A stretch of DNA of 40,527 bases. It comes from an uncultured Candidatus Saccharibacteria bacterium. Its GTDB lineage: Bacteria > Patescibacteriota > Minisyncoccia > Phycocordibacterales > EsbW-18. The notes under the pieces are model-generated. The model was not told where the DNA came from. It was given only the letters and a program-made list of their open reading frames with translations, and ran no database searches. Where the stretch lies: the NCBI GenBank assembly GCA_964634615.1, contig CAZWLQ010000005.1, forward strand, positions 1 through 40,527. The letters run 5' to 3'. The translations under genes were made by a program, and so were the position numbers. This document shows positions 11,687-27,737 of this stretch, in pieces (within the stretch, counting starts at the first letter, position 1; every line of letters starts with the position of its first letter).

Positions 11687-11714
11687 TTGTTTCTCAAAAT
11701 CAACCTGATATAGT
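11687..11714 (+). promoter_or_regulatory. Promoter TTGTTT-16 nt-TGaTATAGT (extended -10) for orphan gene 11757
   Basis: Read directly from the sequence. Confidence 0.45.
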
Positions 11715-11756
11715 TGCGATAGAAACAACCCTCGATTCCGATGCAAGGAGGCATCC

Positions 11757-12116
11757 ATGCAAGTTCAACGCACGACCCTGATGAATTGGGAGCTTTCCAC
11801 ACGGTATGGTGGGCAGCTTCTAGCTAAGACCCGCCGACGCTCCTTCACGACACTCGAAGAGGGTCGTGCTAAGGCTCTGCTCGAATTCCTGGAGCGCGTC
11901 AACAAGGCCCAGGGAGAGAGCATGGCAACAGACTTGCTTGATGGCGAGCTCGACCTTCTGAAGGAAGTCGTTCCTCCTGCACTGGAGGGCTTGCCTCAAG
12001 ACCTCTTACAGATGGTTCACGTGATGCGAGAGAGACTCGCGGGCAAGTCCGTGAAGACCGACTCCGTTGAAACCTTTCTGTCGAGACTCAACGCGCGCTT
12101 CAAGAGAGCAGTCTGA
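11757..12116 (+). CDS. Orphan hypothetical protein, 119 aa, helical, GC-richer than its neighbours
   Basis: Strong SD AAGGAGG 5 nt upstream of ATG. The SD sits in the loop of hairpin gaugc-AAGGAG-gcauc. The gene has its own terminator. Confidence 0.6.
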   Translation: MQVQRTTLMNWELSTRYGGQLLAKTRRRSFTTLEEGRAKALLEFLERVNKAQGESMATDLLDGELDLLKEVVPPALEGLPQDLLQMVHVMRERLAGKSVKTDSVETFLSRLNARFKRAV

Positions 12117-12142
12117 ATTGGTTGTCGTCTTGATCGTTAAGT

Positions 12143-12172
12143 CCCCCGCCCTCAAAAGCGGGGTTATCTTTA
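12143..12172 (+). terminator. Terminator of orphan gene 11757
   Basis: ccccgc-cctcaaaa-gcgggg followed by ttatcttt. Confidence 0.6.
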
Positions 12173-12188
12173 TGCAAAAAACTATCAG

Positions 12189-12217
12189 TTGCGACAGCTT
12201 GAACCCTTTGCTATGGT
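12189..12217 (+). promoter_or_regulatory. Putative efp promoter TTGCGA-17 nt-TATGGT
   Basis: Read directly from the sequence. Confidence 0.45.
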
Positions 12218-12229
12218 AGAGACACTTTG

Positions 12230-12252
12230 GAAGCCTTCGGGCTTTTTTGTTT
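12230..12252 (+). terminator. Terminator-like hairpin inside the efp leader
   Basis: GAAGCC-UUCG-GGCUUU followed by UUUGUUU. It sits between the putative promoter and the efp ATG at 12272. Confidence 0.5.
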
Positions 12253-12271
12253 GAAATCTAAACACGCAATC

Positions 12272-24622: not shown

Positions 24623-25177
24623 TCAGGAATCCGTTTCAGCAACCTCCGCGACGGGGGTCTTGTAGGCGGCCGAGGTAGCTTCGACCTTGTAGCCAAGCTG
24701 CTTGGCTAGGGCGTGGAATGCCCAGAACCTCGCCTTGCGCTCAGCGACGCTTCTTTTCGCATGCCACAACAGGCCGTGCATCTCTTCTGAATTGTCGTCT
24801 GCGGCAGCAGGATCAGCACACTTTCGACTCTCCGCCCGTTCTTGAAGAAGTACGACCTCCCGATCGAAAGCAGCTTCAAGATAGGAGTAAAGCTCCCGCA
24901 GTGTGGCATCGACGAGCGGGCTGAGGGTGAGCATCTGCCTAAAACGGATTTCCTTCTCCAGCCGTCGATGGACTGGCAAGGAGCATAGGGACTTGAGAAA
25001 GGTGATCCCAAGGAAGAAGGTGCTGAGAGTGATCCAGACGAACCACCCTTGTCCCTCCTTCACACTGGGGCCAAGGACCCACGATGCTAAGAAGGAGCTC
25101 CCCAATACCAGGATCCAGTAAAAAATGCGTAGTCGCTTCACATCCTTGCTCTTCATGAACTGCTCGTAACCAGACAT
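24623..25177 (-). CDS. Orphan 2-TM protein, 184 aa (module C), a distant paralogue of 23824-24396
   Basis: SD GGGGGAGG 6 nt upstream of ATG. It has the same topology as module B and shares short motifs (..CAD.. acidic patch, ..LGYK..). Confidence 0.65.
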   Translation of the reverse strand: MSGYEQFMKSKDVKRLRIFYWILVLGSSFLASWVLGPSVKEGQGWFVWITLSTFFLGITFLKSLCSLPVHRRLEKEIRFRQMLTLSPLVDATLRELYSYLEAAFDREVVLLQERAESRKCADPAAADDNSEEMHGLLWHAKRSVAERKARFWAFHALAKQLGYKVEATSAAYKTPVAEVAETDS

Positions 25178-25312
25178 CTGCTGCCTCCCCCGCCATAGCG
25201 GGACTTAGTTCCCGCCACAACGGATCTCGGAGCTCTTCTCCGAAACAGAGACGCTCTTCGCCTCTCAAGGAACTTTCGAAAAGATAGTGCTCCGAAAAGT
25301 AGACGTTGTCAA
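25178..25312 (-). promoter_or_regulatory. Module C promoter, operator-like palindrome and conserved leader
   Basis: TTGACA-17 nt-CACTAT with conserved blocks ccgaaagttccttgagaggcg and ccgttgtggcgggaactaagtcccgc. The variable hairpin is UCGGAG/CUCCGA here versus AGUGAG/CUCACU in module B. Confidence 0.7.
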
Positions 25313-25321
25313 TAGTTTCTC

Positions 25322-25353
25322 CTCTTCTCTGTTTCTGCAGAAATAGAGAAGAG
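25322..25353. repeat. 32-nt near-perfect palindrome at the ligA / island boundary
   Basis: ctcttctct-g-tttctg|cagaaa-t-agagaagag. It lies 8 nt after the ligA stop and just upstream of the module C -35 box. Confidence 0.8.
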
Positions 25354-25361
25354 TATTTTAT

Positions 25362-27356
25362 TTACAGGAGTTTTTTGAATTCTGCTTCAGTCAAAATCTT
25401 TACACCGAGTTTTTGTGCCTCAATGTATTTAGTTCCTGGGTCATCGCCTGCAACAACGTAGTCGGTTTTCTTTGAGACCGAGGAGGAAACCTTCCCACCC
25501 TGACCACGAATCAAATCCCCCGCTTCATCCCTGCTCATAGAAGAGAGCGTGCCCGTGAGCACGAATGTTTTGCCGGTGAGTTTCCCCCCAGCGACTCGTT
25601 CTTCTTTTTCGAGTGTGATGTGCGTCATGAGTCGTTCAAGCAGTCGTGCGTTTGCATCATCGCGAAGCCATGCGTAGAGAGAGCCAGCGACGATTGGTCC
25701 GACGCCATCAATTTCCGTGAGCGCGTCGAGTGTCATGTTCTTCAATTTCTCAAGTGTGCCTGCGTGCTCCGCAATAATCCGTGCGGTCTCCTCCCCCACG
25801 TGTGGAATAGAGAGCGCGACCAAAAATCGTGAGAGTTTGAGTCGCTTTGATTTTTCTACTCCTTCGAGCAAGTTGTCTGCGGACTTCTCTGCAAAACGTG
25901 GCAGCGCGAGGAGGTCTTCTTTGGTTACCGTGAAGATGTCGTCAAAGTCATCCACCAACCCTTCCTCAAGAAAGAGCTTCACGTTCTCCTTACCCATTCC
26001 TTCGATATCAAAGCCGTGCTTGCCCGCAAAGTGTTCGAATTGTCGCCTGCGTTGATCAAACGATCCCTTGTGCACGCATCGCCACGCAGCTTCGCCAGGC
26101 ACGCGCTCAATTGACCCATCGCCTCCGCAGAGCTGTGGAACTTTTTTTGGGAACGACCATTTCTTTTCTTTGCCGGTACGAAATTCTATGAGCACTTTCA
26201 CGACTTCAGGGATTACATCGCCCGCGCGTTGAAGCACGATGGTGTCGCCGATTCGCAAATCAAGCTCTTTGATGAAGTCTTCGTTGTGCAAGGTCGCACG
26301 AGAGACCATCGCCCCACCAACGAACACCGGACGCATCTTTGCAACCGGGGTGAGGACGCCAGTGCGCCCCACCTGAAGCGTTATGTCTTCAATCACGGTC
26401 GTTACCTGCTCTGCCGGGAATTTGTATGCGACCCCGAAGCGAGGGGCCTTTGCGGTGTGGCCGAGTGAGCGCTGGTGTGCGACATCGTTCACTTTGAGTA
26501 CCACGCCGTCAATGTGATATGCGTTGCCGTGCCGACGCTCAATCGCATCTGCGTAATAGCTTTCGATTTCATCTTCCGTTTTGAGAATTTTGTAGTGCGC
26601 GTTCACCGAGAATCCCAAACGCTTGAGGAGTTTCAATTCCTCTTCTTGGGATGCGAGTAGTTGGTCGGACGCGTCAATGTCATAAACAAACGTGCGGATG
26701 TCTCGCGATGCGGTAACCGCTGGATCAAGCTGGCGCACCGAACCCGCGGCAGCGTTTCGTGTGTTTACGAATAATTGCTCGCTCGCTTTTTCGCGAAGCG
26801 CGTTTATGCGATCCAGTTCTTCTTGCGGAAGCCACACCTCGCCGATTGCGATTAAGCTTCTGGGTTCTTTAAGTTTTTGCGGAACATCTTTGATAGTGCG
26901 CACAGTGTGCGTGATGTCCTCCCCCACCTCTCCATTACCGCGGGTTGCCGCTCGTGTAAGCAGTCCGTTCTTGTAGGTCAAAATTACTTTAAGCCCGTCA
27001 ATCTTTTCCTCTGCACAAAAAGAAACTGTGGCGGATGAAGGAAGACCTTTTTTTACGCGCTCGATCCACGCGGAAAGTTCCTCACGATTGAACACGTTGT
27101 CGAATGAATATTGACGAACATCGTGGCGGACTTTTGCGAATGCTTCCGAAGCCTCACCTCCAACCTTCTCGGTGACGCTCTTCTTCGGTTTAAGCGTCGG
27201 GTAGGTTGCTTCAAGTGTGAGTGCCTCCTTCACCAACGCGTCATACGCCTCATCCGATATCTCGGGGGTGTCCTTGGCGTGATACAGGTCAGCGTGCCTC
27301 GCAATCTCTTTCGTGAGGGTTTCGTATCGTTTTTTTATATCTGCCGAGGGCTTCAT
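25362..27356 (-). CDS. ligA: NAD-dependent DNA ligase LigA
   Basis: Adenylation motif KIDG, OB fold, Zn finger, HhH repeats and a C-terminal BRCT domain ([10 protein letters not shown]). Confidence 0.95.
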
Positions 27357-27498
27357 GTGGGTCTATTGTACAGGGGTCAAGCACCTTTTTCCTCTCGTCA
27401 TCAAAAAGAGCAAGCACCTGACCCATCACTCGTTTTGTTGACAATACGAACTATTCATGTACAACGTACATCAAACAGTACCTTCCGAGGAGGAGCCA

Positions 27499-27675
27499 AT
27501 GAATCGCGAGAAGGCCTTCAGGAACCAGAGAATGCAGGATTTCTCTCAACTGCTGAAGTTCCTGGTGAGGGTGGGGGCGGTGGCGTTTTTCTCATTCTTC
27601 CTCTATCAGAATCTTTCGAAGCCGATCCGGGGTTTCCTGCACTCTGGGCACAACTCCGTCCAAGCCTACCAGTAG
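27499..27675 (+). CDS. Orphan single-TM small protein, 58 aa
   Basis: Strong SD GAGGAGGAG 4 nt upstream of the internal ATG at 27499, a TM segment VGAVAFFSFFLY, and a strong terminator downstream. Confidence 0.5.
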   Translation: MNREKAFRNQRMQDFSQLLKFLVRVGAVAFFSFFLYQNLSKPIRGFLHSGHNSVQAYQ

Positions 27676-27696
27676 CTTCTGGTGTGGCATGACACA

Positions 27697-27737
27697 GCCC
27701 GTAATCTCATGCGTGAGATTGCGGGCATCGTTTTTTA
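27697..27737. terminator. 12-bp-stem terminator with a T-run
   Basis: cccgtaatctca-tgcg-tgagattgcggg followed by catcgtttttt. Confidence 0.8.

Follow-up and report, generated by a model that had tools for sequence, protein, structure and literature searches.

The stretch of DNA that we analyzed (the window, which is a complete contig of 40,527 bp) contains seven small genes that differ from the housekeeping genes around them in how their translation appears to begin. Each of the seven is preceded by a strong Shine-Dalgarno (SD) sequence, and none of the core genes in the window is. These seven SD-led cassettes are real and lie far beyond what chance would produce. We think it reasonably probable that they are resident cassettes, specific to their lineage and with a fast turnover, whose SD-dependent signals are conserved in a clade that has a leaderless core. 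We number the cassettes, and the open reading frames (ORFs) that they carry, from 1 to 7 in order of position along the window. Judging from its protein sequences, the host is a bacterium of the Candidate Phyla Radiation (CPR)/Patescibacteria, of the Parcubacteria type, because its EF-P and RecA are 96.8% and 98.6% identical to those of a genus-level relative that the submitters labelled Candidatus Paceibacterota.

A cassette consists of a sigma70-type promoter, a 5' untranslated region (5'UTR) of 20-105 nt, an SD located 5-8 nt upstream of the start codon, an ORF of 58-190 amino acids (aa), and a GC-rich intrinsic terminator. The ORFs begin exactly at the seven ATGs (11757, 15489, 20708, 23421, 24396, 25177, and 27499) that had been picked out in the original prediction, which was made by reading this sequence. 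The parts are:

Cassette 1, 11745..12172, + strand: SD AAGGAGG at 11745-11751; ORF1 at 11757-12116 (119 aa, helical); terminator at 12144-12163
Cassette 2, 15160..15594, − strand: promoter TTGATT-17-TATAAT at 15594-15566; 5'UTR of about 70 nt; SD AGAGGAG
ORF2 (cassette 2), 15202-15489, − strand: 95 aa; terminator at 15181-15160
Cassette 3, 20246..20776, − strand: promoter TTGACG-16-TAGTAT at 20776-20749; 5'UTR of about 34 nt; SD GAGGAGGTG at 20721-20713
ORF3 (cassette 3), 20289-20708, − strand: 139 aa, Cys-rich; terminator at 20261-20246
Cassette 4, 23392..23748, + strand: −10 box TATAGT at 23392-23397; short 5'UTR; SD AAGGAGG at 23409-23415
ORF4 (cassette 4), 23421-23711, + strand: 96 aa, basic N-terminus; terminator at 23730-23748
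Cassette 5, 23774..24534, − strand: promoter TTGACA (24534-24529)-17-CACTAT (24511-24506); structured leader at 24499-24397; SD AAGGAG at 24408-24403
ORF5 (cassette 5), 23824-24396, − strand: 190 aa, two transmembrane segments (2-TM) plus helical; terminator at 23796-23774
Cassette 6, 24576..25312, − strand: promoter TTGACA (25312-25307)-17-CACTAT (25289-25284); structured leader at 25277-25178; SD GGGGGAGG at 25191-25184
ORF6 (cassette 6), 24623-25177, − strand: 184 aa, 2-TM plus helical; terminator at 24596-24576
Cassette 7, 27438..27726, + strand: promoter TTGACA (27438-27443)-16-TACAAC; 5'UTR of about 35 nt; SD GAGGAGGAG at 27487-27495
ORF7 (cassette 7), 27499-27675, + strand: 58 aa, one TM; terminator at 27697-27726

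Cassette 1 is without a clear promoter of its own. Cassette 4 and gatC are transcribed divergently.

We measured the strength of an SD as the energy of its duplex with the canonical anti-SD, and we compared the cassettes to 36 core starts. The energies at the seven ORFs were −8.8 to −13.1 kcal/mol; among the core starts the median was −1.0 kcal/mol, and the best start reached −7.9 kcal/mol. With a threshold of −8.5 kcal/mol, 7/7 ORFs and 0/36 core starts had a strong SD (P = 3 × 10−8, Fisher exact test), so the strong SD that had been claimed for all seven is there. This threshold was reached by just 1.6% of all ATGs in the window, and alternative start codons of the core genes were likewise without an SD. 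Each ORF was also said to have its own stem-loop terminator, and indeed, when the terminator hairpins between 10.5 and 28.5 kb are ranked by score, the top seven are the 3' ends of the seven ORFs. The claim of sigma70-like promoters stands in part: they are clear at ORF2, ORF3, ORF5, and ORF6 and weaker at ORF7, but the −35 box is poor or missing at ORF1 and ORF4. Across the region, the number of promoter-like sites equals the expectation from shuffled sequence.

The cassettes also differ from the core in composition. Among the genes of the window, the seven ORFs are richer in GC (0.542 vs. 0.495, P = 1 × 10−6, Mann-Whitney test) and in GC at third codon positions (GC3; 0.625 vs. 0.516, P = 0.008), as had been expected, with no GC3 enrichment in ORF2 (0.50) or ORF4 (0.53). 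Codon counts agree with the reported enrichment of CTG, AAG, GAG, and GCC, and AGR, TCC, ATC, and TTC are enriched as well. The codon choice of the cassettes is unlike that of the bulk core, efp, the ribosomal-protein genes, ssb, and recA (there is more CTG, GCC, AGR, GGG, and GAG). We rejected high expression as the sole cause of the high GC3: efp and rpsR are GC3-rich too, but they avoid the CTG, GCC, AGR, and GGG that the cassettes favor.

The core had been described as lacking SD sequences. This holds at all 36 core starts, but it is incomplete, as the core appears to be largely leaderless. A TANNNT motif close to the start codon is known to mark leaderless genes (Zheng et al., 2011, PMC3160421), and we looked for TANNNT that ended 5-10 nt before a start. 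The motif was present at 15/36 core starts, relative to a background of 4.7% (P = 2.5 × 10−11), and at 0/7 cassettes. One core example is:

ligA −10 box TACAAT, 27357..27370, − strand: ends 8 nt before the ATG (27356); no SD

Because this −10 box ends 8 nt before the ATG and there is no SD, the ligA mRNA is likely to be leaderless or nearly so. The same arrangement (a −10 box near the ATG and no SD) recurs at tatD, rpsR, rpsF, gatC, the surface-protein gene, the AI-2E permease gene, pilD, and others.

The leaderless signature extends to the clade. We pooled 427 genes from the window and from 31 Patescibacteria loci that were fetched through LigA, and as a control we scanned 49 Firmicutes loci in the same way. 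The clade pool has a sharp TANNNT peak 6-8 nt before the ATG (69, 24, and 23 genes). Its top enriched upstream 5-mers are mostly −10-like (ATACT, TATAC, ATAAT, and TAATA), and no SD-like word is enriched upstream. The Firmicutes controls lack a TANNNT peak and instead have a 26-fold enrichment of GGAGG. Similarly, 3-6% of the starts predicted in the relatives have a strong SD, as compared to 32-46% in the Firmicutes controls. Thus, the expression grammar of the cassettes is foreign to the backbone, as originally suggested, and also to the whole sampled clade. We did not find any paper that describes a predominance of leaderless genes in Patescibacteria. Within the window, a 51-aa one-TM ORF (4190-4345, − strand) has a GTG start 6 nt after TATACT, which suggests that it is leaderless, and a strong terminator (4149-4182); therefore, small intergenic genes without an SD exist too.

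A comparison with a syntenic relative (L002), whose LigA is 65% identical to that of the window, indicates that the cassettes are insertions. L002 is collinear with the window across the pilus operon, ligA, gatC, gatA, a hypothetical gene, and the genes for the surface protein and permease, followed by tatD, rpsF, ssb, rpsR, efp, and recA. The gaps in this array are 2-50 bp, except for a spacer of about 210 bp without ORFs at efp/recA. There is no counterpart to any of the seven ORFs in L002, and the junctions are closed, which bears out the idea that the cassettes fill gaps between housekeeping units. Within the stretch that L002 covers, 7/8 window genes without a counterpart in L002 are SD-led (the eighth is metG), as compared to 0/22 of the genes with a counterpart (P about 4 × 10−6). 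ORF7 is absent from both L002 and another relative, L001, in which the distance from the pilus gene to ligA is 30-135 bp. The adjacency of ligA, gatC, gatA, and the hypothetical gene is also found in over 20 loci that are more distant. Conservation and synteny of the ORFs across the phylum, which the original prediction had named as its refutation, are not what we see: the seven are absent from L002 and vary in relatives.

Turnover is apparent in a closer, genus-level relative (L097, which is identical to L098; 15.4 kb) that is collinear with positions 5670-20956 of the window. ORF1 is absent from L097, where the recA/efp gap is 205 bp. At the tatD/metG junction, L097 has a 114-aa ORF with the SD TAAGGGAGG in place of ORF2, and no relationship between the two ORFs was detectable. 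ORF3 has an ortholog with 51% protein identity, and its promoter (TTGACG-16-TACTAT), 5'UTR, SD (AGGAGGTG), and terminator stem (GCCTCCTTCGGGAGGC) are conserved with the window; its GC3 excess is similar to that of ORF3. Finally, the efp/rpsR junction, which is empty in the window, holds an extra 102-aa Cys-rich ORF (TTGACT-16-TATAAT, AAGGGG, GC3 of 0.74) with no detectable relationship to ORF3. These differences at the junctions show that the cassette class is present in related genomes and is gained, lost, and replaced there.

Two other features of this region are of note. The efp gene has a promoter (TTGCGA-17-TATGGT, in the region 12189-12271, + strand) and an SD-less leader of about 50 nt that contains a terminator-like hairpin (GGAAGCCTTCGGGCTTTTTT, 12229-12248), which may be an attenuator. 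Across 43 nt of this promoter and leader, the window and L097 are 100% identical, though the surrounding spacer differs. Also, metG lies between the AI-2E permease gene and tatD in the window (15601-17034, − strand) and in L097 (10028-11461), but not in L002. MetG of the window is 67% identical to that of L097, and the neighboring proteins are 81-93% identical. The gene order indicates that metG is relocated, and it may have been replaced or be fast-evolving.

The products had been described as unrelated orphans. This does not hold for all of them: besides the ortholog of ORF3 in L097, ORF5 and ORF6 belong to one family that is fixed after ligA. ORF5 and ORF6 share a 142-nt promoter-plus-leader region and have similar terminators, and by these shared features they are tandem paralogs of one 2-TM family, even though BLASTP finds no similarity between the two proteins. 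In L001 (to which L093 is identical in this stretch), L090, L094, L095, and L096, the stop codon of ligA is directly followed by the leader and a 2-TM protein, and at least six related genomes have the family fixed at this position. A covariance model of the leader has hits of 90-112 bits at eight loci, each time after ligA, and it detects no other site in the 0.5 Mb of the relatives' loci. The family alignment has two TM helices, E-x-R-x-R after the second one, and a C-terminal F...L...GY(K/R)V...YK motif.

The leader is better conserved than the protein. Between ORF6 and its counterpart in L090, the leaders are 93% identical and the proteins 47% identical; between L095 and L096, the values are 99% and 68%. 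The family has a GC3 of 0.66-0.72 in every member, as compared to 0.52-0.55 for the adjacent ligA in L001, L093, L094, and L096, which have enough ligA for this measurement (L095 has 135 nt of ligA and L090 has about 30 nt). Copy number varies at ligA/gatC: L002 has no copy, L093 and L096 have a single one (and then a gatC that looks leaderless), L094 has at least two cassettes, and the window has two plus ORF4. The second cassette in L094 (2475-2901) combines TTGACA-17-TATTGT with a short leader (hairpin CCGCCTGAGGCGG), the SD AAAGGGG, and a 2-TM ORF without BLASTP similarity to ORF5. Also, a direct repeat (CTTTTCGGAG / CTTTYCGAAAG) that may be an operator lies on both sides of the −10 box in the promoters of ORF5, ORF6, and L090 and is absent from L001-type promoters:

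Repeat bracketing the −10 box, 25281-25300 and 24502-24520, − strand; in L090, 105-130

The consensus fold of the leader (about 100 nt) has three hairpins, P1 to P3. No variation is seen in P1 (GAGAGGCG-N5-CGTCTCT) or in inner P3 (GGCGGGAAC.AA.UCCCGC). Among the 7 distinct leader sequences, five pairs of P2 are changed on both sides. In the alignment, 89% of cells are paired, vs. about 50% if the structure is slid by a few columns, and the folding z-scores are −1.8 to −4.3. No Rfam model matched the leaders at or above its gathering score, and neither a scan of the whole window nor a targeted permissive scan had any hit over them. The transcript begins with UUCCUU, which is able to pair with the SD in 86% of cells. 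Because of this potential pairing, translation of ORF5 and ORF6 is probably gated by the accessibility of the SD. The leaders of ORF1-4 and ORF7 are unstructured: their folding energies do not differ from those of shuffled sequences, and we rejected an SD-hiding structure in these five.

In searches for the leader elsewhere, the exact 21-mer of the P3 hairpin had no match in metagenome or viral contigs, and the P1 pattern had a single match, in a soil metagenome contig (L089). There, the P1 module (GTTCCTTGAGAGGCG-N5-CGTCTC, at 1239-1264) stands alone, right after a TTGATA-17-TATTAC promoter and downstream of a trmD-like gene. GGGGGAG follows it directly, at the end of the contig.

The ratio of nonsynonymous to synonymous divergence (dN/dS) is 0.13 for ORF4, relative to the 92%-identical L091, and it is 0.18 for ORF3 relative to the close strains L099 and L100 and 0.31 relative to L097. 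Core genes with unsaturated synonymous divergence between the window and L097 have ratios of 0.02-0.08. By these estimates, ORF3 and ORF4 are shown to be under purifying selection. Among close strains (window 20289-20708 and 23421-23969, compared to L099/L100 and L091), synonymous differences are rarer in the cassettes (12/195 sites) than in the flanks (86/393 sites; about 0.06 vs. about 0.22, P = 5 × 10−7, Fisher exact test). Between genera, the cassette proteins are far more diverged than the flanking proteins. Three processes could each account for this pattern: a recent, gene-specific spread via recombination, biased gene conversion, or constraint on synonymous sites. The second of these would also account for the GC3 excess that persists. 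The combination of low divergence among close strains and high divergence between genera suggests gene-specific sweeps or biased gene conversion at the junctions. (L081-L088 are 100% identical to the window and so are uninformative about strain variation.)

We propose the following. The clade would express its conserved genes without SD sequences: the first gene of an operon would have no leader, its TANNNT −10 box lying 6-8 nt upstream of the ATG, and the internal core genes would follow in tight operons. The cassettes would be monocistronic small-gene units, inserted at the junctions of an ancestrally gap-free gene array, and their terminators would insulate them from their neighbors. They would form a flexible layer of the genome that is gained, lost, or replaced between related genomes. 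Where a cassette is retained, its protein would diverge quickly, with the promoter, 5'UTR, SD, and terminator nearly unchanged. Conservation is higher in the promoter, SD, and terminator than in the proteins, so the SD seems to be maintained in these hosts instead of being a relic of a donor. It would be read by an intact anti-SD, and we infer that the ribosome has retained one; this would give the cassettes a 30S-dependent initiation route apart from the leaderless route of the housekeeping genes. The payloads, which are membrane proteins and small Cys-rich proteins, would presumably act at the envelope or in host/phage interactions, under diversifying selection. A bolder version, which we hold only tentatively, is that the clade might keep the SD/anti-SD interaction as a dedicated channel for accessory genes, with conserved genes being leaderless or SD-independent and with the structured leader gating the SD as a riboswitch or a thermometer does. 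If this is true, then the core and flexible genomes are separated at the initiation of translation.

Several points weigh against these proposals. The anti-SD motif was undetected in about half of the 16S genes of Parcubacteria (Tsurumaki et al., 2022, PMC9297842), and we deduced its presence here from the conservation of the SD only. The comparison is based on a few short metagenomic contigs. ORF1, ORF2, and ORF7 had no ortholog among the sequences that we reached, so their coding status comes from their anatomy alone. In a 99.4%-identical contig with 1.9x coverage (L092, 716-994), codon 93 of ORF1 is changed from AGA to TGA (window position 12033), which implies either a dispensable gene or a sequencing error. 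No payload had a match above threshold in Pfam, NCBIfam, PHROGs, PADLOC, or the PDB sequences. As for the leader, P1 and the inner part of P3 give no evidence from covariation as they are invariant, and the helix between UUCCUU and the SD is in the minimum-energy fold of just 2/6 leaders.

Alternatively, the cassettes could be moron-like genes that phages or other mobile elements recently imported, own signals included, from SD-using and GC-richer donors. We consider this unlikely. Recent import would account for units that are autonomous, for their atypical GC content and codon usage, for the absence of all seven from L002, and for their differing presence in L097, and the lower synonymous divergence among close strains is compatible with spread by recombination. 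However, PHROGs, PADLOC, IMG/VR, INPHARED, and PLSDB gave no phage, plasmid, or defense link (IMG/VR was scanned with ORF1, ORF2, ORF3, ORF4, ORF7, and both leader patterns and yielded no relatives, and BLAST against INPHARED and PLSDB yielded no match). There is no integrase, transposase, or phage domain within the 40.5 kb, according to Pfam, and a comparison of ORF6 to 1.84 billion representative proteins found a single relative, in the same kind of locus. Furthermore, ORF3 and ORF5/ORF6 are orthologous at fixed junctions in genus- or family-level relatives, with their GC3 excess and signals kept, which by this comparison makes three of the seven cassettes (those of ORF3, ORF5, and ORF6) long-time residents. 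Members of the ligA-linked family do not differ in their GC3 excess, and the L097 ortholog of ORF3 has a similar one, which argues that the excess is a stable trait and not the footprint of a recent import. The original prediction spoke of a moron-style architecture as in prophages. The terminators, the promoters of most units, the atypical composition, and the presence/absence pattern fit this description, but the searches above do not support a connection to phages or mobile elements, and no phage homologs were found in PHROGs, IMG/VR, or INPHARED. We also considered the gene cassettes of integrons and rejected them: most of our cassettes have their own promoter, there is no integrase, and apart from the duplication of ORF5/ORF6, no recombination-site repeat common to the cassettes turned up in a scan for repeats.

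It is quite unlikely, we think, that the cassettes are conflict modules, that is, membrane toxins or abortive-infection effectors that are silenced by their leaders and evolve in an arms race. A 2-TM N-terminus with a helical cytoplasmic domain, fast protein evolution, a copy number from 0 to at least 2 at ligA/gatC, and a structured leader with the potential to pair with the SD would all suit such modules, and ORF7 (58 aa, one TM) has the size and shape of a type I toxin. Some 2-TM members even match DUF4231, SLATT_1, or Phage_holin_3_6, but far below the curated cut-offs (the best match to DUF4231, which is seen in just 2/7 members, has E = 0.032 and 15 bits vs. a cut-off of 24.7, and SLATT_1 has E = 0.27). 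PADLOC had no match, the neighbors of the 2-TM family in every locus are ligA and gatC instead of conflict-system or defense genes, five of the leaders (those of ORF1-4 and ORF7) lack structure, and we identified no partner gene or antisense RNA (antisense RNA was looked for only by the Rfam scan). Birth de novo from intergenic spacers, with SD sequences that evolved because the genes were born on leadered transcripts, strikes us as very improbable. It fits with the lack of homologs outside a narrow clade, with the relaxed dN/dS (0.31 vs. 0.02-0.08 for core genes), and with short, simple proteins whose AlphaFold confidence is low (the predicted local distance difference test score, pLDDT, is 33 for ORF3, which makes the model useless, and 61 for ORF6, which is predicted to be all-helical). 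But the ancestral junctions (2-50 bp, or about 210 bp at efp/recA) are too short to yield these ORFs, each cassette is complete with a promoter-like element, an SD, and a strong terminator, and the ligA-linked family has a complex and conserved leader even in its most divergent members. Finally, we put almost no stock in chance or annotation artefacts, such as fortuitous SDs and ORFs or wrong starts for the core genes. It is true that chance combinations of an SD, a start codon, and an ORF are common inside coding regions and that gene callers conflict over the starts of ORF1, ORF3, ORF6, and ORF7. Yet all seven cassettes reach an SD threshold that so few ATGs reach, and each of them fills a gap and ends at a top-ranked terminator. 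Also, the alternative core starts lack an SD, the clade-wide k-mer test is independent of any single start call, dN/dS is well below 1 for ORF3 and ORF4, and a full-length homolog (P0016) validates the 184-aa form of ORF6.

The remaining features of the window are consistent with the gene map that had been described (recA, efp, tatD, metG, surface protein, gatA, gatC, ligA, and pilus operon). The long ORFs were assigned by Pfam, as follows:

312-1091, + strand: SIMPL/DUF541-family protein
After the SIMPL/DUF541 gene: RmuC, YqeY, then a peptidoglycan-binding protein
7829-10093, + strand: FtsK
10617-11678, + strand: RecA
12272-12832, + strand: EF-P (efp)
12937-14248, − strand: bS18, SSB, and bS6 (rpsR-ssb-rpsF)
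14318-15130, − strand: TatD
15601-17034, − strand: MetG
Between metG and the DUF11 surface-protein gene: AI-2E permease
18183-20120, − strand: DUF11 surface protein
20849-21550, − strand: conserved hypothetical protein
Between the hypothetical gene and gatC: GatA
23038-23322, − strand: GatC
25362-27356, − strand: LigA
27735 to about 38422, − strand: type IV pilus operon
After the pilus operon, to the end of the window: two non-pilus genes (PEP-utilising and histidine-phosphatase domains)

There is a truncated tRNA at the start of the contig (1-54) and a tRNA-Met (CAT) at 2433-2505 on the minus strand. The latter is overlapped by a 78-aa ORF (2309-2545) that is probably spurious. The spacer between gatA and gatC (22988-23037) holds the palindrome CCTGCCTGCCGGCAGGCAGG and cannot be aligned with the 92%-identical L091, though the flanking genes align. 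In the pilus operon, pilin genes have a CA-rich element (TTCCAAACACCAAGCTCCAAA, minus strand; 28962-28997, 29591-29626, and 36820-36842) directly before the ATG, which may be an SD-independent translation element or a regulatory element of the pilin mRNAs.

To our knowledge, CPR/Patescibacteria are mostly uncultured and their gene control is almost unstudied; nor do we know of any riboswitch-like element that is specific to Patescibacteria. The leader is a concrete candidate for a new cis-regulatory RNA. Should the pattern extend across the genome, the initiation signal (leaderless or SD) by itself would flag a flexible gene pool that is probably host- or phage-facing, and the pattern would show that one organism can run two initiation systems that are divided by gene class. 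There is a practical aspect as well: the gene callers disagreed on 4/7 ORFs, and models with a mixed grammar would annotate such genomes better.

How do the cassettes compare to known systems? Morons, as described by Juhala, Hendrix and colleagues, are reportedly extra genes with their own promoter and terminator that lie between conserved genes of lambdoid prophages. Like morons, the cassettes are self-contained units between conserved, co-oriented genes, with atypical composition and with presence/absence among relatives. Unlike morons, they are in a chromosomal housekeeping region and not in a prophage, no phage homologs were found, and at least 3/7 are inherited at fixed junctions with signals that are better conserved than the proteins. 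A parallel in translation is the loss or disuse of the interaction between SD and anti-SD in Parcubacteria (Tsurumaki et al., 2022, PMC9297842). In the Bacteroidia, too, the SD is generally disused, and a few genes, such as rpsU, keep it. The window is similar in that the SD is not a general signal but persists on a small and special set of genes; here, however, this set consists of variable accessory ORFs and not of autoregulatory ribosomal genes.

Leaders that sequester the SD are known from translational riboswitches and from RNA thermometers such as ROSE and fourU. The leader of ORF5 and ORF6 resembles these in that its 5'UTR has multiple hairpins, a pyrimidine stretch (UUCCUU) can pair with the SD, and the leader is more conserved than the coding sequence. 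It differs in having no Rfam match and in that pairing with the SD is not predicted uniformly across members. The proteins of this family are like SLATT/DUF4231 effectors and holins in being small and fast-evolving, with two N-terminal TM helices and cytoplasmic helices, but the similarity is below threshold in some members (E of 0.03-0.3) and there are no conflict-system genes nearby.

Lastly, many backbone genes are like the leaderless TA-led genes of other phyla (PMC3160421), with TANNNT about 6-8 nt before the start and no SD. In those phyla, leadered genes, including housekeeping genes, mostly use an SD, whereas in the window and in the sampled regions of its relatives, the SD is confined to small lineage-specific cassettes. 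Accessory cassettes of orphan ORFs and leaders that gate an SD are both of a known kind. What is new here is the clean split between core and accessory genes in their initiation grammar, along with a leader motif that does not match Rfam.

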